This document shows, piece by piece, positions 7,922 through 50,227 of a stretch of 50,800 nucleotides of DNA. The notes under the pieces were generated by a model. The model ran no database searches and had not been told where the DNA came from. It saw only the letters and a list, made by a program, of their open reading frames with translations. Made by a program: the position numbers and the translations under genes. The stretch is from Escherichia phage vB_EcoS_ESCO41. Position 1 is the stretch's first letter, and each line of letters begins with the position of its first letter. The stretch lies in sequence record NC_047820.1; one strand, given 5' to 3'.

Positions 7922-7932
7922 TGCCTGCAATC

Positions 7933-7941
7933 TGGTATAAT
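7933..7941 (+). promoter_or_regulatory. extended -10 element TGGTATAAT upstream of terminase genes
   Basis: Direct reading; no clear -35. Confidence 0.3.
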
Positions 7942-7970
7942 TCATTCCTATTCAACAAGGGGAAACAACT

Positions 7971-8489
7971 ATGAAAGACGAAAATTTCACCAGCCACGCG
8001 AACGAGAAGGTTCGAATCGGTAACTTCAAAGAGCTATACAATAAAAAGTATGGCGACATTGCCAACCTGAACCATCGTCACCCAATGACGCCTGAGACTG
8101 TATTCAACCTTGCGGTTAAATATTTCTCATGGGCCGAGGACCAGGCAATTAAGGCAATCGAAACGGCGAGCTTCCATGGTGTAGTTACTGAGAACCTAGT
8201 GCATAAGCCTCGCATTTTCACTTTAAACGGATTCTGCCTGTACTGCGGAGTTACAGCAAGCTCAATTCAGAGCTGGCGCGCATCACCTGGATTCGCGGAG
8301 GTAATGGAGTTCGTTGACTCTGTAATCCATGAGCAAAAATATCAGCTTGCTGCAGCCAATATCATCAATGCTGGGTTTGTAGGCAAGGAGATTGGAATCG
8401 ACAAGCCCGCCGAGGTCAACGTAAGTAATGTAGTGAATGATACTCAGACGATTGAGGATGCTGTGAAAAGCGTTCTTGATAAGATTTGA
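7971..8489 (+). CDS. putative terminase small subunit
   Basis: 172-aa ORF immediately upstream of the large terminase; assignment by position only. Confidence 0.45.
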   Translation: MKDENFTSHANEKVRIGNFKELYNKKYGDIANLNHRHPMTPETVFNLAVKYFSWAEDQAIKAIETASFHGVVTENLVHKPRIFTLNGFCLYCGVTASSIQSWRASPGFAEVMEFVDSVIHEQKYQLAAANIINAGFVGKEIGIDKPAEVNVSNVVNDTQTIEDAVKSVLDKI

Positions 8490-15074: not shown

Positions 15075-15102
15075 TTGACCGTTTAACAAAAAATGCTATT
15101 AT
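15075..15102 (+). promoter_or_regulatory. sigma70-type promoter TTGACC-N16-TATTAT for the major capsid gene
   Basis: -35 15075-15080, -10 15097-15102. Confidence 0.55.
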
Positions 15103-29886: not shown

Positions 29887-30128
29887 TATTTCCACTCCTT
29901 ACTACCGTGATCTGCAACGGAGCCGCCGTAACCTCCGCCATTGGCCTTAATTCCATCGTAGCGCACGTCAACTTCTCCAGCCGGCACAACCACACCATTT
30001 TTCCATTTAGCCACGCACACTCCGTTTGATTGCGTTGCACACCAACCATCAGGGCGAGGACCAGAAGAACAACCTACCATCATGATTGCTGCTGCGGCGA
30101 TGATTGAAAGTTTGATTAAGTTAGTCAT
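29886..30128 (-). CDS. small lipoprotein, Cor-like superinfection-exclusion candidate
   Basis: Signal peptide plus lipobox MVGC in [22 protein letters not shown]; about 80 aa; adjacent to tail-fibre genes as cor is in FhuA-dependent phages. Confidence 0.45.
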
Positions 30129-30168
30129 TTCTAATTCCTCATTAAGTGCGTTTCGTTTCGATGGAGTA

Positions 30169-30211
30169 ATAGTATCGCATCCTTGCGATCAGTGTTTAGC
30201 AATTAGTGCTA
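30169..30211 (-). promoter_or_regulatory. palindrome-promoter cassette (minus): TAGCACTAATTGCTA + 22 bp + TACTAT
   Basis: Palindrome (plus 30197-30211) overlaps the Rha-like stop; leader CCATCGAAACGAAACG at plus 30149-30164. Confidence 0.6.
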
Positions 30212-30856
30212 TTTCTTTTCCAGCAGCAGCTTGATATCAATGCCGAGATTATTCTCAATCAGTCCGGTCAGCGCATCAGTCTTTTCCTTAAGGGCGAAGC
30301 ATTGAGCTTCATATTTAAATCTTTCCTCCATCTCATCAGAACGACCGACCCAACACTGGCGAGCCTCACAAGCCAACATGTCGAGCTTTTCATCGGTATT
30401 CTTATCCATCAGCAGGATCTCATTTATTCTTTGCTCCGCAACAATGCGCTGGCTCAGGTGTGCATTTTGCGCATTAGCTACACCAAGCATCATGCGCGCC
30501 TCTTTTAGTTCATCAATACTTACCATCTGGCTGATTACCTCAGCTTGCTTTTTAACTAACACCTCAAGCTCATGAAGCCTACGGATAACTTTGTGGCGAA
30601 GCAAGACGCTGTAGCCAGTGATTAGCGTTTCGGTGAGCTCCTTGTCTAGAAGAATCTCAGAATTATAACCTCGACCATCTTTAAGTATCTGATATTGCTT
30701 ATCATCCAAAACTGGATGATCGTTATATTGTAACAACTCATTGATCATATCCCTTGCATCCCTCATTACGTGGAAGTGCTCCTTTCCAGTTAATCCAGCG
30801 ATTTCCTTTGTGCTCATCATGGTTTTTGGTTGTTCTTTGTACGCTTTAATGTTCAT
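30209..30856 (-). CDS. Rha-family phage regulatory protein (antirepressor-like); start ATG 30856
   Basis: MMSTKEIAGLTGKEHFHVMRDARDMI resembles the Rha N-terminal domain; RBS GAGAGATTAAA before 30856; longer ORF-track N-terminus is probably 5' UTR. Confidence 0.5.
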   Translation of the reverse strand: MNIKAYKEQPKTMMSTKEIAGLTGKEHFHVMRDARDMINELLQYNDHPVLDDKQYQILKDGRGYNSEILLDKELTETLITGYSVLLRHKVIRRLHELEVLVKKQAEVISQMVSIDELKEARMMLGVANAQNAHLSQRIVAEQRINEILLMDKNTDEKLDMLACEARQCWVGRSDEMEERFKYEAQCFALKEKTDALTGLIENNLGIDIKLLLEKK

Positions 30857-30926
30857 TTTAATCTCTCTATATGTTTTGACTGCGAAAATTTCGTATTCAA
30901 ACGGCACCATCGCCGCCATGCGCCTA

Positions 30927-30969
30927 AATATACCCAGATATAGCCAGTTGTCTTTAGCAATTCGTGCCA
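30927..30969 (-). promoter_or_regulatory. palindrome-promoter cassette (minus): TGGCACGAATTGCTA + 22 bp + TATATT
   Basis: Plus 30955-30969 palindrome with one half-site mismatch; -10 at plus 30927-30932. Confidence 0.5.
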
Positions 30970-31035
30970 TTTATCGCCAATTCCACCATAAATCACGGTT
31001 ACACGTAACCGATGTAACTCGATGTATACAATCTC

Positions 31036-32544: not shown

Positions 32545-33201
32545 ATGCGTACATCAGAGAAGTTTTCGAATGTTTCATCCGCTCTAATTGCAGCTAAAAA
32601 GCAGTTTGCCATCGCAAAAAAATCAGGCTATAACACTCACCTAAAAACTCACTACTCAAACCTGACGGACGTTTTGGAGGCGGTAGAGCCAGCACTGAAA
32701 GAACATGACCTTATGGTTATCCAGTCAAATCTGGACACGTCAACCGAAAAGGTGATGCACATTGAAACGCTCATCCTTCACAGTTCCGGCGAGTGGCTTG
32801 CTTTCCAGTACAATATGCCGATTGAGAAAATTAGCGCCCAGGCATACGGCTCTACGACTTCATACGGTCGCCGTTACGCATTATGCGCGGCACTTGGTAT
32901 TACTCAGAGCGATGACGACGCAGAGATCGCAAAGCGTACGGCAGCAGATTACAAAAAGCTGATCACCAACTGTGATAAGCTGGAAGACCTACAGGTGATT
33001 TATAAGAGCGCAAAGTGTTCACTTGGCGCGGCGGAATGGAAGATCGCAGAAGACCACTTGCAGAAGCGCAAGGCTGAGCTTAGCATTGGTAACGCTCGCG
33101 GATTCCAGCCAGCAAAAAAGGCTGACAATCAAAAGGTTGAGGATAAGGTTGCAAATGCACCTTCTGAACCTGTACAATCTGAATCCATCGAGCAATTCTA
33201 A
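32545..33201 (+). CDS. Erf-like single-strand annealing protein (putative)
   Basis: 218 aa between exonuclease and SSB; functional assignment by module context. Confidence 0.45.
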   Translation: MRTSEKFSNVSSALIAAKKQFAIAKKSGYNTHLKTHYSNLTDVLEAVEPALKEHDLMVIQSNLDTSTEKVMHIETLILHSSGEWLAFQYNMPIEKISAQAYGSTTSYGRRYALCAALGITQSDDDAEIAKRTAADYKKLITNCDKLEDLQVIYKSAKCSLGAAEWKIAEDHLQKRKAELSIGNARGFQPAKKADNQKVEDKVANAPSEPVQSESIEQF

Positions 33202-33239
33202 TTAACGGGGCTTCGGCCCCATCAAAAAAGGAAAATATA

Positions 33240-33683
33240 ATGCCACACGTAATCACTGGCCAGATCCGTAAATCACCATTCACTAAAGAAGGAAGCAACA
33301 ACAACGGACGTTGGAAAATGTATGCCGTCGAACTTTCTGAGCGCATGAAGATTCGAAATCAGAATGGCGAGGATGAGACGGTTTATAGCAACTACCGCGC
33401 TACATTCTTCGCAAAAGAAAACGTTATGCAGTGGTATGATGAAGCGTTCCAGGAGGGAAAGGTTGTTTCAATTTCTGCCGACACTCTTCATTTATCGTCT
33501 CGACAGGGTAATGATGGAACCGTTTACGTCACCGCTGAAATGATCCGGCCTCAGCTGCAATTCAGCCAGCGCGAACAAGCGCAGAAGCAGAGTCAAGGAC
33601 AACAACAGCATCAGCAGAATCAGAGACATCAGCAGCAGCAGCCACAACAACAAAAACAATTCGAAGACGATATACCGTTCTAA
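33240..33683 (+). CDS. ssb: single-stranded DNA-binding protein
   Basis: 147 aa; Gln/Gly-rich linker and canonical acidic tail ..QQKQFEDDIPF. Confidence 0.8.
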   Translation: MPHVITGQIRKSPFTKEGSNNNGRWKMYAVELSERMKIRNQNGEDETVYSNYRATFFAKENVMQWYDEAFQEGKVVSISADTLHLSSRQGNDGTVYVTAEMIRPQLQFSQREQAQKQSQGQQQHQQNQRHQQQQPQQQKQFEDDIPF

Positions 33684-33687
33684 AGAT

Positions 33688-33713
33688 AAGGCCCCTTTCG
33701 GGGCCTTTTTTGT
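33688..33713. terminator. bidirectional terminator
   Basis: AAGGCCCC-tttc-GGGGCCTT with T-runs; separates convergent SSB and tail-fibre genes. Confidence 0.65.
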
Positions 33714-33717
33714 TTGG

Positions 33718-36123
33718 TTAAATCAATCCATAAATAACATTGTGTAACGTAAGGGAGCCAATGGATGGTCCTACGTTAAAGTTTATCTCGGCTCTATATG
33801 CACCCTGAGGAACTGTTGATATAAGAGCGTAAAAAGAGAAGCTACCACCTTGCGGTATGTAGTAACCTACAGATTCCTCAACGGCATTACCAGAAATATC
33901 TAAAAATCTAATACTTGCTAATGCTGTTGTTGTGCTCATGGCCCAAAAGCCGAACTGGAAGTATCTACCCGGTTCGCAATCATAAGCATTAGTGGTAAAG
34001 TTAGCTGATGAGTTTAAGTCCGGTACATTCAAAAGGAATGACCTATCAAACTGAGCAGCTACACCTGTAGGCGCCTGCGAGACACTAGAGACAGCAACCG
34101 ATCCAGAAGAAGTTTGCGACAGTGACCAGTTGGAAGTATTCTGAAACTGGCCGCTGCCATTGCTTAGGCTGTTAATGTAAGGGCTAACAATTGATCCCTT
34201 GCTCCAATCACCAACAGGGAATCCAGCTCTCGGAAAGCACCCTCTCGCGATAACCTTTTTACTAGACCCGCCGACAACTTGCCTTGCTGGGAAACCAGAA
34301 GCAATTGTGGTACTTCCGTATAGGGGAAGCGAACAATTATTCAAGATTACAACGCCATCATCATTACTTACGATTGGAACAGACGTAAAACCATCTGGAA
34401 CAAGAATGGTGGTGTCTTTTATGCTTAATCTCGAACTTCCTGTGACCAGGAATGATACGAAGTTCTGACCTGGCTGATACTCTATATTTCCATTTGAGAA
34501 AACTACCGTCGCGTTATCGGACAGATTTACTGTGGGGTCAAAATAGCCACTCTTTTTACCTGCCGGTAATGAGCATGAATCAAAAATAAACTGACCATTC
34601 TCAAAGGTGATTGGTCCTCCGTTATCTACAATCCAGCAGTGATTAAACTTCATAACTTCACCAGAGTTAGCTCTCGACCTAAAAGTTATTGTCTCATTAA
34701 AACTCCTGCTTATTGCGCATTTATCAAAAAGAATCCTATATGAGTTGTCTAAGAACTCAATTCCACCAGTTGATATGATTCCGCAGTTCTCGATTCTTAA
34801 TTCGCCAGTCTCACCAGATGTTGCTCCACCTATACAGAACTTGCGGGCTCCAAGGCCAATAAATGAAACTCCAGATATCAATGATGTTGATGATATCGAG
34901 TCTCTATCAACATAATCAGTATTTGAGTTGAATATGTTGATGAAATATTCACCAACAGCACCGGGGGACTCTTTAATATTGCACTTGTTCTCGCCTATCA
35001 ATGAACCTTTTGATACGTCTATGTTTATCTGTGATTGCACAAGGCCATCTACAGGCACAACGCAGTCAAGGCCAGCCATGTTTACTGAGTTTATTGGCGC
35101 AGCTATATCACCATCACCAGTGTAACCAGCATCATATACTGTTGCTCTTCTACCGTTAAGTTTACGCCTCCATGTGACGCCGTCTCCTGCAAAAACAGTT
35201 ACATTATTAACCTGAAGTGATGCATCTGACGCGATAAGAGTACCGCCGCCTAGGTTGAATCCAGCCACATAAGACTCAAGCTCAATCGTAGTAATACCAA
35301 TCTCACCTGACAAACTAGATAACTCTGAAACTGATTTAACCTTACCGATTGAGCTTAAACCATCGTAATCAAACAAGTTTGAGTCATAAACCTTAACCCA
35401 TGAATCTACACCAACTCCACCCGTTGAATCTGGCGTAGAGCCTGCTGGAATCGTCTTTGGGAATGACCCAGTCCAGACATAAGACTTAACATCACTTCCA
35501 TTGATGTATAAAACCTGCTGATTTGTAGACTCTACCGTTCCTCCATCTGAGAAGTTTAAAGTTAATGTTCCAGACACAGAGTTTGCCGCTGCCTCTGCTC
35601 TATCGGCGGAAGATGATGCATTGGTGGCGTTAATTTGTGATGATGATGCATCACTTGAAACCTGTTCTGCAATCGTAACAATATCACCGTACTTCGTGTT
35701 TACCTGCTCTGCAATCGTAACAACATCACCGTGCTGCGTGTTTACCTGCGTTACCTTTGATTCAAAATCAGCATAGTCAAAATTGTTAAATGCATCAATA
35801 GCATCTGCAACTTCTGTTTCACGAGACTGATAGTAACGAAGTGTTTCTGCAACATCCTGAGCTAAGCCCTGAACGGTAATCCCATCGTGAGCAAGAATCG
35901 CGTAACCAGTTCCGGCAGGAACAGTTTCAGAATTAGGGTTATAAACATTAATATGCGTATCGCTGATAATTTCTGAGATAGTGTAAATCTGTACTGGTTC
36001 AGTTTTGAAAACAATGGTAGCACCAACGCGAATCAGTGTAAGCGGTGCTTTCCATGTCGTCCCGACGCCAGTAACCTCGCCATTTGCGGCTAGCGATGCT
36101 GTTCCTAAGTCATAAATTGCCAT
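33718..36123 (-). CDS. tail fibre / tailspike protein; start ATG 36123
   Basis: 801 aa; N-terminus MAIYDLGTASLAANGEVTGVGTTW is a phage-fibre-type anchor (recalled from memory); Gly/Asn/Ser-rich body; RBS AGGAG. Confidence 0.65.
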   Translation of the reverse strand: MAIYDLGTASLAANGEVTGVGTTWKAPLTLIRVGATIVFKTEPVQIYTISEIISDTHINVYNPNSETVPAGTGYAILAHDGITVQGLAQDVAETLRYYQSRETEVADAIDAFNNFDYADFESKVTQVNTQHGDVVTIAEQVNTKYGDIVTIAEQVSSDASSSQINATNASSSADRAEAAANSVSGTLTLNFSDGGTVESTNQQVLYINGSDVKSYVWTGSFPKTIPAGSTPDSTGGVGVDSWVKVYDSNLFDYDGLSSIGKVKSVSELSSLSGEIGITTIELESYVAGFNLGGGTLIASDASLQVNNVTVFAGDGVTWRRKLNGRRATVYDAGYTGDGDIAAPINSVNMAGLDCVVPVDGLVQSQINIDVSKGSLIGENKCNIKESPGAVGEYFINIFNSNTDYVDRDSISSTSLISGVSFIGLGARKFCIGGATSGETGELRIENCGIISTGGIEFLDNSYRILFDKCAISRSFNETITFRSRANSGEVMKFNHCWIVDNGGPITFENGQFIFDSCSLPAGKKSGYFDPTVNLSDNATVVFSNGNIEYQPGQNFVSFLVTGSSRLSIKDTTILVPDGFTSVPIVSNDDGVVILNNCSLPLYGSTTIASGFPARQVVGGSSKKVIARGCFPRAGFPVGDWSKGSIVSPYINSLSNGSGQFQNTSNWSLSQTSSGSVAVSSVSQAPTGVAAQFDRSFLLNVPDLNSSANFTTNAYDCEPGRYFQFGFWAMSTTTALASIRFLDISGNAVEESVGYYIPQGGSFSFYALISTVPQGAYRAEINFNVGPSIGSLTLHNVIYGLI
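35661..35744 (-). repeat. intragenic 42-bp tandem repeat (2 copies, 4 mismatches) in the tail-fibre gene, encoding VNTQHGDVVTIAEQ / VNTKYGDIVTIAEQ
   Basis: Direct comparison of 35661-35702 with 35703-35744. Confidence 0.7.
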
Positions 36124-36148
36124 AATAATCAACTCCTATATTGTTGTT

Positions 36149-36163
36149 TAGCACGAATTGCTA
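36149..36163. promoter_or_regulatory. isolated TAGCACGAATTGCTA palindrome 26 bp upstream of the tail-fibre start, with no -10 at the usual distance
   Basis: Direct reading. Confidence 0.4.
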
Positions 36164-36189
36164 AAGCGCATTGTATCATAACAAAGGAA

Positions 36190-36212
36190 TAAAAAAACCC
36201 GCCGTAGCGGGT
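36190..36212 (-). terminator. rho-independent terminator (minus strand) after the primase-like gene
   Basis: ACCCGC-tacg-GCGGGT followed by T7 on the minus strand. Confidence 0.65.
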
Positions 36213-36217
36213 AATTG

Positions 36218-37159
36218 TCATGAATACTTATCTATCAGATCCTGCGGCGTATATAGCTTTCGCTCAAGGCCCATCTTGAAGTTTCCACCGTTCGGCACGA
36301 CGACCTTCAAATCTCTCTCATCAGCCATGTAAAGCGTTCTCAAATCGTCAGCCGGACAAGCTACGCGCAACTCTCGATCTCCACGATAACGATAAGCAAC
36401 TATCTCAAGATTCTCAGGAGAGAAAGTAACCCAGACTTCCTGAATGGTCGCCATCTTCACACGATAACCATCAATCAGATCGCTTGTCATATATATAGCT
36501 GCATCAGCCTCGCCACTCCCCAGCTTAACCACTGAGCCGCGAGAATAATCACGCGCAAGGAAAGTGTATTCGCCATTATCATAAGCAAACATGACGTTAC
36601 ACATATCCTCATCAATTCCGTCATGGTGGACCATGTAGCACGGTAGTGCGTGTATTAGCTCCTCAGTGCCATTCTGACGCACTTTTACGCCAACATCATA
36701 CGAATCCTCAGTTAGGCACTCATACACGCTTAAATCGGTGCTCTCGCGCTTTTCTGTGCGTTCCATTACAGCTACACACGACTCATGATCCGCCATCTTG
36801 CCTAGGCCTTTCTCCGGTACGCGTGACGCCCTGCGGTAAGCTTTGGCTTTGTAATCCTGTGGCACTTTGCCAAGGAATCGACCGAGAATATTAATCACTT
36901 CACTGTAAGGCTCACCAGTCAGCTTCATCATCCAGCCAACACCGGAGTCGTTACCGCACTGATTACAGATTGCCCCACCGTCACCAGGGGAGTTAATGTT
37001 ATCAGTCCAGCGGAAGCGATCCGATCCTCCACAATACGGACAAGCCTGGTGCTTCTTATTAAAAACTCCAGACTGTAAGCCACATATCGACTGCAAGGCT
37101 TCTCGCCATAACCCCTTCATATATGGCAGAACTTCTTCTTTCCGATACATCTCATTCAC
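36218..37159 (-). CDS. primase-like zinc-binding protein (putative; GTG start)
   Basis: CPYCGGSDRFRW..CNQCG zinc-finger-like pairs near N-terminus; 313 aa; replication-module context. Confidence 0.45.
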   Translation of the reverse strand: MNEMYRKEEVLPYMKGLWREALQSICGLQSGVFNKKHQACPYCGGSDRFRWTDNINSPGDGGAICNQCGNDSGVGWMMKLTGEPYSEVINILGRFLGKVPQDYKAKAYRRASRVPEKGLGKMADHESCVAVMERTEKRESTDLSVYECLTEDSYDVGVKVRQNGTEELIHALPCYMVHHDGIDEDMCNVMFAYDNGEYTFLARDYSRGSVVKLGSGEADAAIYMTSDLIDGYRVKMATIQEVWVTFSPENLEIVAYRYRGDRELRVACPADDLRTLYMADERDLKVVVPNGGNFKMGLERKLYTPQDLIDKYS

Positions 37160-37174
37160 TTTGATTACTCCAAT

Positions 37175-37204
37175 AAAAAAGGTTGCACCAATTATGGCAC
37201 AACC
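37175..37204 (-). terminator. hairpin plus T-run (minus strand) that also carries the -10 of a degenerate cassette
   Basis: GGTTGCACC..GGCACAACC hairpin with plus-strand A6 (minus T6) tract. Confidence 0.45.
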
Positions 37205-37233
37205 TTAATTTTACTCTTTAGCTTTTCGTGCCA
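37191..37233 (-). promoter_or_regulatory. degenerate palindrome-promoter cassette (minus): TGGCACGAAAAGCTA + 22 bp + CATAAT
   Basis: Same spacing as canonical cassettes; -10 lies in the hairpin loop. Confidence 0.4.
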
Positions 37234-37234
37234 T

Positions 37235-37423
37235 CTAAACAACAAAGTGATGAGTCATTCTCCGCGACAAAAAAGACTCAAGATATCTTTCAATTACTTC
37301 CTTTTTACCAGTTTTTTTGTTGTAGGCGTATGGAGTTCCGCTGGTGTTGTCAACTTTACCAACAAATTTGTCGCCATCAACGTTAAAGATTGCTACGAAT
37401 TTACATTTAGGTAATTTGTTCAT
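37235..37423 (-). CDS. hypothetical protein (62 aa)
   Basis: ORF preceded by leader CACATCGAAAGCAGG and RBS. Confidence 0.45.
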   Translation of the reverse strand: MNKLPKCKFVAIFNVDGDKFVGKVDNTSGTPYAYNKKTGKKEVIERYLESFLSRRMTHHFVV

Positions 37424-37465
37424 TTTGTATATCCTCGTTTGGTTTGCCTGCTTTCGATGTGGTCA

Positions 37466-37508
37466 ATCATACCTCATCAATGAGAAATGTCTTTAGCTTT
37501 TCGTGCCG
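37466..37508 (-). promoter_or_regulatory. degenerate palindrome-promoter cassette embedded in the 3' end of the HTH gene: CGGCACGAAAAGCTA + 22 bp + TATGAT
   Basis: Plus 37494-37508 palindrome-like, -10 at plus 37466-37471, then leader and gene 37235..37423. Confidence 0.45.
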
Positions 37509-37959
37509 CATCGTTAGCGGCCTTAATCTTGCGCCATGAACGACACTCTGGCTTAGTGGCTAGTTCAGCCTCGGTGACGACGCGCAGCATGTGACGCTTT
37601 TTGCAACGCAGCGTTAGCGGCTTACCGTTCCCGTCGAATTGCAGATCCGGTCGGCAGAACGTAGCGCGGAATCCCTCTCCAGTTCGTTTGTATCGGTTAT
37701 GAGCCAGCTGAGCGCCACGGGCCGACATCATGCCGCGCTTAAACCATTCCTCAACGGCCTGGCGACTAACTTTCAGTTGCTTTGCGATATTTGCCTTCGT
37801 TCCGTAGAAGTCGAGAACCATTTCCAGTCGCGCCCGAAGCCCCGCCTTTACTTCATCTTTTAAAACGTAGTAACCTGAAGGTCGTTTTCGTTGCTTTTTG
37901 TCTTCAGTGCGGACTGTTCCGTTGTTACCGTTAATAGTTCGCTTGTCAACTGCTTTCAT
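37477..37959 (-). CDS. basic DNA-binding protein with helix-turn-helix (candidate transcription regulator)
   Basis: HTH-like TKANIAKQLKVSRQAVEEWFKRG; Lys/Arg-rich; divergent from the helicase gene with a palindrome in between. Confidence 0.5.
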   Translation of the reverse strand: MKAVDKRTINGNNGTVRTEDKKQRKRPSGYYVLKDEVKAGLRARLEMVLDFYGTKANIAKQLKVSRQAVEEWFKRGMMSARGAQLAHNRYKRTGEGFRATFCRPDLQFDGNGKPLTLRCKKRHMLRVVTEAELATKPECRSWRKIKAANDAARKAKDISH

Positions 37960-37972
37960 TTTATCACCTCAA

Positions 37973-38015
37973 TAGCATTTTTTGTTAAAAGTCATTACGA
38001 TTTGATGGTAGTATT
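37973..38015 (+). promoter_or_regulatory. palindrome-promoter cassette: TAGCATTTTTTGTTA + 21-22 bp + TAGTAT
   Basis: Palindrome 37973-37987 sits 14 bp upstream of the divergent HTH gene start and upstream of the helicase gene. Confidence 0.5.
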
Positions 38016-38060
38016 GTACCAAATTAAACGCTACAAGACAATTTTTATAGGAATTTAGAT

Positions 38061-39242
38061 ATGTTGCCTATCGAGAAGTTGGTTGCGAACTTCGATAAAG
38101 AAAGAATCAAACAAATTCAGAGAGATTATCAGTTTGGCGAGATAACCCCTTACGAATTCCAGTGCGTTACATTTGATGCAATTGGAAAGGCTATTGGGAA
38201 GTATGAGGCCCCATTTATAGCAGACCTTTCCGTTTCTGCGGGTAAGACAATTATTCTTGCCATGATTGGTAAGCGCATGGAGCAATTAGGGTTGCCTTAT
38301 ATGGTTCTTTCTCGCCAGTCAGAGATAATCAGCCAGAACTCAGAAGAGCTCCGTAATTTCGGTATCCGTAACAGCGTATATTGCGCTGGCCTTAACGTTA
38401 AATCAGTTTACTACCCAACCATAGTGGCTAGTGAGGGTACGGCAGCCAATGGCTTATTTAAGGGGCTTGGTGACTATGTTCCTGCGGTTATCGCTATAGA
38501 TGAATGTCACATGCTTGATACCATAGATATTGTGGAAGCCGAAGAGAATGAAGAAACATTTGAGCAAATGAGCACAAAGAAAGGCGAGATGGTTTTTAAG
38601 GATGGCGTTAATACTGGATTGCTTGGTACTGGTCGTGCGCAGTACACGCTAATAATCACTGAGATGAAGCGTCGCTGCCGTGAAAAATACGGGCGGGAGC
38701 TTCGTATATTCGGCCTTACTGGTAGCCCTTATCGAAACAATGACCATATCGTCGTTAGCAATCCAAACATCCGTGGGTTCTGGCGAAAAACTGTGATTCA
38801 GGTTCCAACAAATTACCTTGTTGATTTGGGATTCGTGGTTCCTACTGTTTATGGCGAGGTTGGCGATTTAGGTTATGACCTTAGCGAGTTTGAGCCTGAC
38901 GGAAGCGATGGTGTGAAAGATTTCAGCAAGAAAGAAATGGATGCGATGGCTGCAAAGATTCACGACAATCAGTCAATGACTCAAAAAATAATGGGGTTTG
39001 TTGTAAAAATACTAGAGACTCGTAACGCCGCGCTGGTTACATGCGCTGGCAAGTTGCACTGCAGTGAAGCGGCTGCCGCACTGCCTGATGGATACCCTTA
39101 CGCAATCATTACTGATTCTACTGGCGAGAAAAAACGACGTGAGATTCTATCTGATTGCCAGACAGGTAAGTACAAAATAATATTCCAAATTGGGTGTCTA
39201 ACTACGGGCGTTTCGGTCCCGCCCTTACGCAATCATTACTGA
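38061..39242 (+). CDS. SF2 helicase, N-terminal part (reading frame broken by 127-bp tandem duplication)
   Basis: Walker A SVSAGKTI, DEAD-box-like AIDECHM; ORF stops 21 nt into the second repeat copy. Confidence 0.65.
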   Translation: MLPIEKLVANFDKERIKQIQRDYQFGEITPYEFQCVTFDAIGKAIGKYEAPFIADLSVSAGKTIILAMIGKRMEQLGLPYMVLSRQSEIISQNSEELRNFGIRNSVYCAGLNVKSVYYPTIVASEGTAANGLFKGLGDYVPAVIAIDECHMLDTIDIVEAEENEETFEQMSTKKGEMVFKDGVNTGLLGTGRAQYTLIITEMKRRCREKYGRELRIFGLTGSPYRNNDHIVVSNPNIRGFWRKTVIQVPTNYLVDLGFVVPTVYGEVGDLGYDLSEFEPDGSDGVKDFSKKEMDAMAAKIHDNQSMTQKIMGFVVKILETRNAALVTCAGKLHCSEAAAALPDGYPYAIITDSTGEKKRREILSDCQTGKYKIIFQIGCLTTGVSVPPLRNHY

Positions 39243-39348
39243 TTCTACTGGCGAGAAAAAACGACGTGAGATTCTATCTGATTGCCAGACAGGTAAGTAC
39301 AAAATAATATTCCAAATTGGGTGTCTAACTACGGGCGTTTCGGTCCCG
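39095..39348 (+). repeat. perfect tandem duplication, 2 x 127 bp (39095-39221 and 39222-39348), inside the helicase gene
   Basis: Base-by-base comparison; 127 is not a multiple of 3; deleting one copy restores a single ORF 38061..40182. Confidence 0.85.
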
Positions 39349-39369: not shown

Positions 39370-40182
39370 TTGAGAAAGATTGGTAGCTTAACTCTCATGA
39401 TTCAGCTTCTTGGGCGAGGCATGCGAATTCTAAAGAAAAAGCATATAGAAATGGGGATGAAAAAAGATGATCACCTTGTTCTAGACTTCGCCGGCGCACT
39501 TGACGATATGGCCGAACTTTACTTTGACCCAATCATTGAAGAAATTCAGGCTGAGAAGTTCAAGTCCTCAAGGAAAGGTGGTGATGAGGTCCGGCAGTGC
39601 CCGCAGTGTGGATATGAGAACTCACCATTTGCTCGACGCTGTAGCAACAAGATTGATGGAAAGCGCTGTGAGCACTTTTTCAGCTTTACGGTTTGTGAAG
39701 ATATTACTGACCCACAAACAAAGTCCGTCATCAAGAAAGGTTGCGGTACTCGCAACGACATAGCAGCAAAGGTTTGTCGTGAATGCGGAGAAATGCTTAA
39801 AGACCCTAATGCTAATCTAACCGGTAAGATGTATCGTCGTGGTGATTACCTCCGAGTTTATGATTTTCAAGTTGGTTTAAGTAAGAACCAGACTGGAATA
39901 GTTGTTAAATACAACATCATGGCGCATAACGGAGAGCGGTTTAATGCTTGGGAGTTCTTTAATCCAGAATCAGACCATCGAGTTTGCAGCGTGCTTTGGA
40001 AAAATTTCTGCCTATCCCATATTGAGAATCGCACAGAAGCAGCACGAATTGCTAAACTTCGCAGCGCAAAAATGATTATGATGAACGTAGATAAATTCCG
40101 TGCTCCTGTGCAGGTAACTCACAGAAAGAATGGCAAAGGAAAGGACATAATAGCTTTTAAGAATTTTGGAGAATTATTATGA
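39370..40182 (+). CDS. SF2 helicase, C-terminal part (motif VI plus Cys-rich zinc-finger-like region); possibly a pseudogene fragment
   Basis: QLLGRGMR helicase motif VI; CPQCG..RRCSNK..CEHF and CGTRND..CRECG; frame continuous with upstream ORF if one repeat copy is removed. Confidence 0.55.
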   Translation: MRKIGSLTLMIQLLGRGMRILKKKHIEMGMKKDDHLVLDFAGALDDMAELYFDPIIEEIQAEKFKSSRKGGDEVRQCPQCGYENSPFARRCSNKIDGKRCEHFFSFTVCEDITDPQTKSVIKKGCGTRNDIAAKVCRECGEMLKDPNANLTGKMYRRGDYLRVYDFQVGLSKNQTGIVVKYNIMAHNGERFNAWEFFNPESDHRVCSVLWKNFCLSHIENRTEAARIAKLRSAKMIMMNVDKFRAPVQVTHRKNGKGKDIIAFKNFGELL

Positions 40183-40655
40183 ATTGGAATGAGTGTTTTT
40201 ACTATGACAATGGCGTTTTGAGGTGGAAAATCCGCAGGGCTAATTGCGTTAAAATTGGTGACGAGGTCGGATTTAAACACGAGAGAGAGGGTTATAGGTT
40301 TTTCTGTAGGGACAGAAAACAATACTCTACACACAGAGTAATATGGGAAATGTTTTACGGACCAATACCGAAGGGCATGGAGATAGATCACATTAATCAC
40401 GTTAGGGATGACAATAGAATAGAAAACCTTAGACTTGTAAGTAAGCAATCAAATATGGAGAACAAATCGAAATACAAGAACAACAAAAGCGGATTTACTG
40501 GAGTGAGCTTCGAAAGTAAGTCTGGTCGGTGGTCTGTGAGTGTTGGGTCAAAAAGATACGGAAGATTCGATAACATCGAGCACGCAAAAATATGCGCAAT
40601 GATAGTTAGGGCTGAACTTGGATACCACGATAACCATGGGGATTATTTCCAGTGA
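40179..40655 (+). CDS. HNH homing endonuclease
   Basis: IDHINHVRDDNRIENLRL motif; paralog of 10187 and 12823 genes. Confidence 0.75.
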   Translation: MNWNECFYYDNGVLRWKIRRANCVKIGDEVGFKHEREGYRFFCRDRKQYSTHRVIWEMFYGPIPKGMEIDHINHVRDDNRIENLRLVSKQSNMENKSKYKNNKSGFTGVSFESKSGRWSVSVGSKRYGRFDNIEHAKICAMIVRAELGYHDNHGDYFQ

Positions 40656-41111: not shown

Positions 41112-41150
41112 CACCTCATCGAAACGAAGTAACCAACCAAGGAAATCAAA

Positions 41151-48596: not shown

Positions 48597-48634
48597 GATT
48601 ATTTTCCTTTGGTGTGTTTCGTTTCGATGAGATG

Positions 48635-50189: not shown

Positions 50190-50227
50190 TTTTACTTCCT
50201 CTTTGTGTACTTCGTTTCGATGAAATT

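Follow-up and report, generated by a model that had tools for sequence, protein, structure and literature searches.

An inverted copy of the T1-family direct repeat at the predicted transcription start of a lateral tail fibre gene: a possible operator in a T1-like coliphage

The 50,800 nt sequence of Escherichia phage vB_EcoS_ESCO41 (NC_047820.1, referred to as the window) contains a lateral tail fibre gene on the minus strand, between genes for a single-stranded DNA-binding (SSB)-like protein and a primase zinc-ribbon protein, and a 15 bp motif with complementary ends (TAGCACGAATTGCTA) lies shortly before its start codon. This locus raises two questions: what is the motif, and does it control transcription of the fibre gene? 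An earlier note on this DNA described the motif as a perfect, orphan palindrome and the gene as displaced, and proposed separate, possibly repressive control that would time fibre synthesis. As set out below, the motif is an exact copy of a direct repeat (DR) already described in T1-family phages; it is inverted with respect to the fibre gene and is predicted to cover the first 15 transcribed bases of a conserved promoter, a position from which a DR-binding factor may act as a repressor. Judged by its sequence, the source phage is a T1-like coliphage of the family Drexlerviridae: the region 33000-37500 is 94.7% identical, over 89% of its length, to that of vB_EcoM-p111 (Drexlerviridae, Nouzillyvirus) and has partial matches to dozens of further T1-like coliphages.

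The motif is neither perfectly palindromic nor an orphan. Its reverse complement is TAGCAATTCGTGCTA, and self-complementarity is limited to the 5 bp arms (TAGCA/TGCTA): these 5+5 bases are symmetric, while the 5 nt centre (CGAAT) is not. The sequence is a copy of a published T1-family repeat, as the 2024 re-annotation of phage TLS (PMC11447400) describes a 21 nt direct repeat, aaATAGCACnnnTTGnTAAAA, that is present in 21 copies and whose function was left open. According to that paper, T1, Rtp and Rogue1 also carry the DR; the TLS copies are oriented with transcription, lie approximately 76 nt before start codons and fall into AAA, TTT and GAA classes, and stoperator-like, enhancer-binding and UP-like roles were offered as options (PMC11447400). 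The fibre copy has the same 15 bp core, belongs to the 'G' class (centre GAA), agrees with the DR core TAGCAC-N3-TTGnTA at 11 of 11 specified positions and is, as in TLS, one of many copies in its genome. The window contains 11 copies of the motif with two or fewer mismatches, compared to 0.14 expected by chance, and 19 DR copies when the TLS definition (one mismatch or fewer) is used. Among the matches listed for IMG/VR, contigs of 39-53 kb, a length typical of T1-like genomes, each contain many exact copies of the repeat. The flanks of the fibre copy are gtt (5') and aagc (3') in the window and aaa/aag in T1, Rtp and LF82-11, where the DR expectation is A-rich (aaA / AAAA).

The fibre copy is unlike the DRs of the TLS paper (PMC11447400) in that it points away from its gene (the DR reads on the plus strand and the fibre gene on the minus strand), is separated from the ATG by 25 nt and is not followed by a -10 element at 22 nt. 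TLS itself has no DR copy at its fibre gene, and the paper is silent on a 22 nt spacing between DR and -10 (PMC11447400). The exact motif was not found in the searchable literature; the terms 'promoter', 'direct repeat' and 'transcriptional regulator' are absent from the KanT1 paper, and in the Rogue1 paper promoters appear only in the methods section and 'repeat' refers only to protein repeats. Neither the motif family nor the gene position is new. The novelty seems to lie in the inverted, well-conserved fibre copy at an operator-type position and in a 22 nt rule for the canonical copies of the repeat.

Read in the direction of the fibre gene, the junction consists of the primase stop codon, an intrinsic terminator (36212-36197) with its T-run, the element TGaTACAAT (36178-36170), a 6 nt gap, the DR (36163-36149), the ribosome-binding site AGGAG and the ATG. 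TGaTACAAT has the TG-n-TAnnnT form of an extended -10 with a gene downstream and constitutes the predicted fibre promoter. Using standard sigma-70 geometry relative to this -10, we infer that transcription starts at 36161-36163, which would place the DR at +1 to +15, a repressor-type position. The hexamer TATTAT, found 21 nt past the motif in the fibre direction, was also considered as a -10 and was rejected because of its overlap with the ATG, because transcription would then begin within the open reading frame (ORF) and because T1 and Rtp lack it. With its own family-conserved promoter element and a strong terminator after the primase gene, the fibre gene appears to be a separate transcription unit, which fits the earlier suggestion of separate control. 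Because of this terminator, read-through from the primase gene is unlikely to be the only source of fibre transcripts.

The fibre junctions of 27 named genomes and IMG/VR loci were compared, of which 23 have a fibre DR copy; these 23 represent 18 distinct sequences. TGnTAnnAT is found in 25 of 26 distinct junctions, the exception being TLS, in which the arrangement is different. In all 18 distinct junctions with a DR, the repeat is inverted and starts 6 nt after TGnTAnnAT (7 nt in T1 and BrunoManser). The same position and orientation are seen in T1, Rtp, p111, ETEP102, phiEB49, HazelMika, LF82-11, JulesPiccard, PsgS01F, e4/1c, BrunoManser and the IMG/VR loci. Across the 18 junctions, conservation is 0.99 in the arms and 0.88 in the centre, compared to 0.64 in the 6 nt gap, 0.73 in the upstream flank and 0.67 in the 30 nt downstream. 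The centre varies (ATTCG, AATCG, ATCTG, ATTAG, AATAG or AATTG), but always as TAGCAA...GTGCTA, so that the orientation is fixed. Despite having no fibre DR, Jk06-type phages, Sf12, Opt-79, KP36 and AAS23 keep TGnTAnnAT and the terminator. Two of the records used, PP134917 ('Pseudomonas phage PsgS01F') and MG065688 ('Campylobacter phage A110b'), have junctions nearly identical to those of Rtp-group coliphages, which makes their host labels doubtful.

Table 1. Features of the window that are discussed in the text (nucleotide positions).
Feature	Position	Strand	Basis	Remarks
DR copy at the fibre gene, TAGCACGAATTGCTA	36149..36163	+	exact match	inverted relative to the fibre gene; 25 nt from ATG
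Extended -10 of the fibre gene, TGaTACAAT	36170..36178	-	sequence and conservation	6 nt upstream of the DR in the fibre direction
Fibre ribosome-binding site, AGGAG	36133..36137	-	sequence	9 nt before ATG
Lateral tail fibre/tailspike gene	33718..36123	-	ORF and translation	801 aa; ATG at 36123
Intrinsic terminator 3' of the primase gene	36197..36212	-		ACCCGC-TACG-GCGGGT followed by T7
Convergent SSB/fibre hairpin	33688..33707	.		T-run good on +, weak on -
SSB-like gene	33240-33683	+	ORF and Pfam/PHROG	neighbour of the fibre gene
Primase zinc-ribbon gene	36218-37159	-	ORF and Pfam/PHROG	other neighbour of the fibre gene
Cro-like helix-turn-helix regulator gene, T1 gp23 homologue	37477..37959	-		first gene of the minus-strand unit
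DR in the regulator/helicase divergent region, TAGCATTTTTTGTTA	37973..37987	+		21 nt before helicase -10 TAGTAT
Inverted DR in the spacer of the major capsid gene promoter, TAACAAAAAATGCTA	15084..15098	-		promoter TTGACC (15075-15080), 16 nt, TATTAT (15097-15102)

The canonical copies of the DR have a different relationship to their promoters. Using a criterion of our own (TAnnnT 21-23 nt downstream of the DR), a -10-like hexamer was found after 16 of the 19 window copies, at exactly 22 nt in 12 of them (background 0.042, P=7e-20). The corresponding counts are 16/19 for p111, 16/21 for T1 and 18/20 for Rtp, and the Klebsiella phage KP36 and Pantoea phage AAS23 have the same DR with the same spacing to the -10. 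No -35-like hexamer was seen 17 nt upstream of the DR-spaced -10 elements in the window copies read, and the 22 nt spacer usually contains a GC-rich hairpin, which in many cases is the preceding gene's terminator. If the -10 is taken as -12 to -7, then a canonical DR spans approximately -49 to -35, with its centre near -42. Its half-sites are 10 bp apart from centre to centre, or one helical turn, a spacing that would suit a dimeric helix-turn-helix protein. The promoters in question serve small genes at both ends of the genome as well as recombination, replication, methylase and accessory genes, and the DR marks about twenty promoters in these phages.

Class-II activator sites are centred near -41.5/-42, as for CRP and FNR at class II promoters and lambda cI at OR2 for PRM, or near -43.5 for Mu Mor/C. 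Canonical DR copies resemble these systems in position, in having dyad arms one helical turn apart and in being followed by a -10 without a -35, and their geometry is that of a class-II activator site, probably for a dimeric factor. The fibre copy, in contrast, is not at the -41.5 position. There is no TAnnnT 21-23 nt downstream of it on the plus strand (the hexamer at 22 nt is GGAATA). The statement in the earlier note that no -10 lies at the usual distance is therefore correct with respect to the 22 nt geometry of the repeat, but not for the fibre gene, whose extended -10 is found 6 nt upstream of the DR in the fibre direction. Two other interpretations of the canonical copies were rejected. 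The DR sequence TTGCTA cannot serve as a displaced -35 because a 22 nt spacer is too long for sigma-70, and extrusion of the spacer hairpin would leave far too few bases. The sigma-54 consensus has GG-N10-GC spacing (TGGCAC-N5-TTGC); the DR has N3 instead of N5, giving GG/AG-N8-GC, and most copies have AG rather than GG.

The fibre copy is not the only DR located on a promoter that seems competent with host polymerase. An inverted DR lies in the spacer of the major capsid gene promoter (Table 1), and this arrangement is also found in T1, p111 and TLS (TLS DR7, PMC11447400) but is absent in Rtp. In T1, a DR overlaps the extended -10 of the terminase promoter, and DRs are also found in the gp40 leader and in that of the J-like tail gene; at T1 late promoters overall, the repeat is positioned anywhere from the spacer to about +35, in both orientations. 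At the J position of the window, a degenerate DR copy is retained, and the regulator gene carries a DR in its own leader. The DR thus occurs in two contexts, at a fixed distance before promoters without a -35, and at variable positions and orientations on promoters seemingly competent with host polymerase alone. Such position-flexible placement would suit occlusion rather than contact activation. The terminase promoters themselves (window 7930-7960, T1 8340-8395) resemble the fibre promoter in having a terminator T-run, the sequence atgcctgcaa and TGgTAnAAT.

We tentatively propose, with somewhat less than even confidence, that the fibre DR is an operator-type copy that lets a DR-binding factor hold the fibre promoter off. 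The fibre gene would form a self-contained unit, shielded by the terminator and transcribed from a sigma-70 promoter of its own with an extended -10. A factor that activates from approximately -42 at promoters without a -35 would, when bound at +1 to +15 of the fibre promoter, compete with RNA polymerase for space and shut the promoter. The fibre gene, located amid replication genes, would then follow the schedule of the virion genes and not the early/middle schedule; it would be uncoupled from its neighbours and tied to the capsid and tail promoters. Protein binding to the DR, repression by this binding and the consequence for timing are what we infer from the observed anatomy, statistics and conservation. 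A shared binding factor, as envisaged in the earlier note, is reasonable because the same DR marks approximately 17 other promoters in the window. A role in timing would fit, since the other late structural promoters of T1 carry the DR in or just after the core promoter.

Factors that activate or repress according to the position of their site include phi29 p4, lambda cI at OR and the controller (C) proteins of restriction-modification systems. The DR likewise occurs at activator-like and operator-like positions, and its copy between the regulator and helicase genes would serve both promoters, a dual action predicted from the geometry of the sites. Operators can also overlap a transcription start, as does lac O1, which is centred at +11; the fibre DR would similarly be a short dyad in the initial transcribed region, its position being predicted from the -10. 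The stoperators of mycobacteriophage L5, which is temperate, are asymmetric 13 bp sites to which its prophage repressor binds. T1-like phages differ in that they are virulent and in that most DR copies are upstream of promoters, not within transcription units.

The leading candidate for the DR-binding factor is the product of the T1 gp23-like gene, the sole annotated regulator that is conserved family-wide, although a host protein is also possible. The window protein has a weak Pfam P22_Cro match and matches phrog_2856 (transcriptional regulator) at 1.6e-83. Its AlphaFold2 model (mean pLDDT 76, and >86 over residues 31-120) suggests a Cro-like fold: the best Foldseek matches are the all-helical Cro proteins of Xfaso-1 and N15, with TM-scores of 0.64-0.71 (target length) and a weak E-value of approximately 0.04, and the weak fold matches include restriction-modification C proteins. 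The regulator was found in 827 phage records, and all but one of the 40 matches listed are named for phages of enterobacterial hosts (the exception is a weak match in a Xanthomonas phage). The gene has a good sigma-70 promoter, TTGTCT-17-TGgTACAAT, at 38041-38013, and a DR (37973..37987) is inverted in its leader at about +20 to +34, next to the ribosome-binding site. The helicase -10 (TAGTAT, plus strand) and the regulator -10 (TACAAT, minus strand) overlap at 38005-38020, so that the two divergent promoters should exclude each other; this overlap is kept in T1, Rtp and TLS, and the overall layout is conserved in T1, Rtp, TLS, p111, KP36 and AAS23. The region looks like a switch in which one DR would be at approximately -42 for the helicase and +27 for the regulator, and a DR in the regulator's own leader would give autoregulation. 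Only three promoters of TLS have a sigma-70 consensus, and one of them drives the regulator gene (PMC11447400). The KP36 annotation hints at a sigma-70 region-4 domain for the T1 gp16 homologue; this was also considered, but the window protein gave no Pfam match.

Several observations weigh against the operator proposal or against the regulator as the factor involved. Repression of virion genes by an early/middle activator needs a late relief step that is unexplained. The fibre DR is dispensable, as it is absent in Jk06, Sf12, Opt-79, KP36, AAS23 and TLS, and no DR was seen at the terminase promoter of the window. In the searchable literature, we found no start-site, binding or expression data and no transcript-start or RNA-seq study for any T1-like phage. 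Earlier T1 work, as far as it is cited in the TLS paper (PMC11447400), called these repeats 'perhaps enhancers' in late transcription units. Finally, the predicted recognition helix of the regulator varies (SRQAVEEW, SNQTVQGW, NLKTVWGW, SIQVVQQW, SKQTINAW), yet the DR is practically constant among phages of E. coli, Klebsiella and Pantoea. This drift against a constant site is unusual for a matched pair of protein and site, and we consider it mild evidence against the regulator as the DR binder. Invariance of the DR would be explained by a conserved host protein. The consensus of E. coli Lrp, YAGHAWATTWTDCTR (PMC5554404), agrees in its outer positions with the DR arms at 10/10 bases; over the whole site, 11/15 positions agree in the GAA class and 13/15 in TTT-class repeats with GCTA, but the invariant C at position 6 of the DR is a misfit. 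DR and regulator always co-occur in the distribution comparison, which does not discriminate between a phage factor and a host factor.

The enhancer designation points to an alternative in which the DR is a positive element: the bound factor would stimulate the fibre promoter and other late promoters, switching the fibre gene on with the approximately 17 other DR promoters. We consider this unlikely. Activator-like geometry at 16 of 19 window sites speaks for it, as do the enhancer-binding and UP-like options listed in the TLS paper and the phrase for T1 quoted there (PMC11447400), but a site at +1 to +15 falls inside the polymerase footprint. The range of DR positions at T1 late promoters and their two orientations are a poor fit to a fixed protein contact, and an activator should be unnecessary, since the fibre promoter keeps a full extended -10 even in lineages lacking a fibre DR. 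Six lineages without the copy that retain the promoter (although TLS lacks TGnTAnnAT) are what would be expected if the DR had no regulatory role at the fibre gene and were kept by descent within a homology arm, running from the end of the primase gene to the 5' end of the fibre gene, that is used for swapping receptor-binding modules. This is also in keeping with the fact that what relatives share is limited to the initial ~420 nt of the fibre gene plus the region upstream of it. The conservation profile argues otherwise: arms at 0.99 in intergenic surroundings at 0.64-0.73, with a varying 5 nt centre, indicate selection on the half-sites, and position and orientation are fixed across subfamilies. 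We regard descent alone as unlikely.

Since the predicted start would place the repeat at the 5' end of the fibre mRNA, it could instead act in RNA, as a 5 bp stem with a 5 nt loop that serves as a stabiliser or as a protein site similar to lambda boxB. The hairpin is present in the minimum-energy folds of the window and Rtp leaders, but it is weak (-3.0 kcal/mol, and -0.5 for the TTT class), the leaders do not exceed shuffled sequences in structure (z about +0.5) and the fold of the T1 leader is different. The arms are strictly identical, with no compensatory changes, and canonical DRs lie upstream of their own start points, which defines the family at the DNA level. No N-like protein was found among the 22 window proteins scanned against Pfam and PHROGs, a scan that left many small unannotated ORFs outside. 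A role in RNA is accordingly judged quite improbable. The repeat is in canonical orientation on the plus strand and could also be read as the upstream element of a plus-strand promoter making RNA antisense to the 3' end of the primase gene; with TAnnnT absent 21-23 nt downstream on that strand in the window, T1, Rtp, HazelMika and LF82-11, and with no plus-strand gene following, this is very improbable indeed.

The fibre gene itself is an ordinary member of its family. The earlier note correctly described an 801-aa fibre gene on the minus strand between SSB and primase-like genes, as is evident from ORF, Pfam and PHROG results. The minus-strand ORF spans 33718..36132, but its realistic start is the ATG at 36123, which AGGAG precedes by 9 nt; the TTG at 36132 was rejected as start codon because it abuts this Shine-Dalgarno sequence, and the annotation of the p111 homologue, also 801 aa in length, agrees with the ATG. 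The protein matches Pfam Tail_spike_N at residues 188-245 (7.9e-16) as well as PHROG tail-fibre and tailspike families. Its gene is common to relatives only in the 5' part (~420 nt, or ~140 codons), with a variable remainder and a full-length match in p111 only; the N-terminal 116 aa are 69-100% identical across 15 IMG/VR loci. The gene is bounded by terminators, as had been claimed. The hairpin at 33688..33707 is likely a two-way terminator, and the equivalent place in T1 and ETEP102 is annotated with a terminator for each strand; hairpins equivalent to that at 36197..36212 are present at the fibre junction in all relatives examined.

The suggestion that the gene is displaced did not hold up. 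The order SSB (+), fibre (-), primase (-), regulator (-) and helicase (+) is common to T1 (gp27/26/24/23/22), Rtp (rtp49-53) and TLS (gp55-59), and the paper on the BASEL phages (PMC8594841) describes a lateral tail fibre locus between conserved, fully syntenic recombination and primase/helicase genes, with conservation of the fibre gene limited to its far 5' end. In flanking genes, strand and a conserved N-terminus followed by a variable remainder, the window locus shows no material difference from the Drexlerviridae lateral fibre locus (T1 gp26, Rtp50, TLS Stf; PMC8594841), and the gene order is the family norm. The N-terminal segment, flanking genes and Tail_spike_N domain all fit, and the gene belongs to the Drexlerviridae lateral tail fibres. 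In AAS23, the fibre gene follows the tail genes on the same strand, while in KP36 (Webervirus) it follows ssb; despite these different arrangements, the fibre promoter moves together with the gene in both phages.

Other observations were made on the DR promoters and the neighbouring genes. A leader sequence, ATCGAAACGAA, is conserved after many DR promoters, starting approximately 7 nt past the -10 (e.g. at 1946-1957, 30125-30136 (-), 41129-41139, 48603-48614 (-) and 50196-50206 (-)), and ATCGAAACGAA(AC) is also found in Rtp. The primase gene is preceded by a degenerate DR, TGGCACGAAAAGCTA, with CATAAT at 22 nt (region 37160-37240, minus strand), this -10 being in the loop of a terminator hairpin at 37179-37206. 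Between the regulator and primase genes is an extra 62-aa ORF (37235-37423), with a degenerate DR, CGGCACGAAAAGCTA, followed by TATGAT at 22 nt (region 37440-37510, minus strand); T1, Rtp and TLS annotate no gene there. A 253-aa Rha-like ORF (30209-30970, minus strand) holds a DR promoter in its 5' end (TGGCACGAATTGCTA at 30955-30969, with TATATT at 22 nt), and translation probably begins at an internal ATG. Within the helicase ORF, at its 3' end, is another DR promoter (CAGCACGAATTGCTA, 40040-40054, followed by TATGAT at 22 nt); the gene that it serves encodes an HNH endonuclease (40179-40655) and is an insertion ahead of the VRR-NUC gene. The helicase gene itself, the homologue of T1 gp22, contains a perfect 127 nt tandem duplication (39095-39221 and 39222-39348, 100% identical), which is either an assembly artefact or a genuine disruption; its length is not divisible by 3, and the gene is therefore broken into two ORFs, 38061-39242 and 39370-40182.

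The operator proposal can be extended to the genome as a whole. One factor and one 15 bp site may run the entire temporal programme of T1-like phages: bound at about -42, the factor would switch on about twenty promoters without a -35 (those of early, replication and accessory genes), and it would hold off the virion promoters that look competent with host polymerase; we consider a programme of this scope rather unlikely. The set held off would comprise the capsid, tail, terminase (in T1) and fibre promoters, with sites inside or just after the core promoter. Late in infection the pattern would be reversed, either as genome replication increases the number of sites or as the factor is lost. 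In a variant of this programme, the factor may be a conserved host protein such as Lrp, which would tie phage expression to host physiology; this variant is raised because the site is invariant across Escherichia, Klebsiella and Pantoea phages while the regulator helix drifts.

Taken singly, the finding is modest, as the gene position is ordinary and the motif published. The fibre copy is the cleanest and best conserved of the smaller set of DRs that sit on promoters, and it bears on fibre-module swaps used for retargeting T1-like phages: the ~90 bp before the ATG (terminator, extended -10, DR and ribosome-binding site) are part of the expression unit and should be either carried along or changed deliberately when modules are swapped. 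The transcription programme of T1, a classic phage that is also notorious as a laboratory contaminant, is to our knowledge essentially unmapped. The strict 22 nt spacing from DR to -10, together with operator-like copies on promoters that look competent with host polymerase, provides a testable model for the separation of early and late transcription in these phages.

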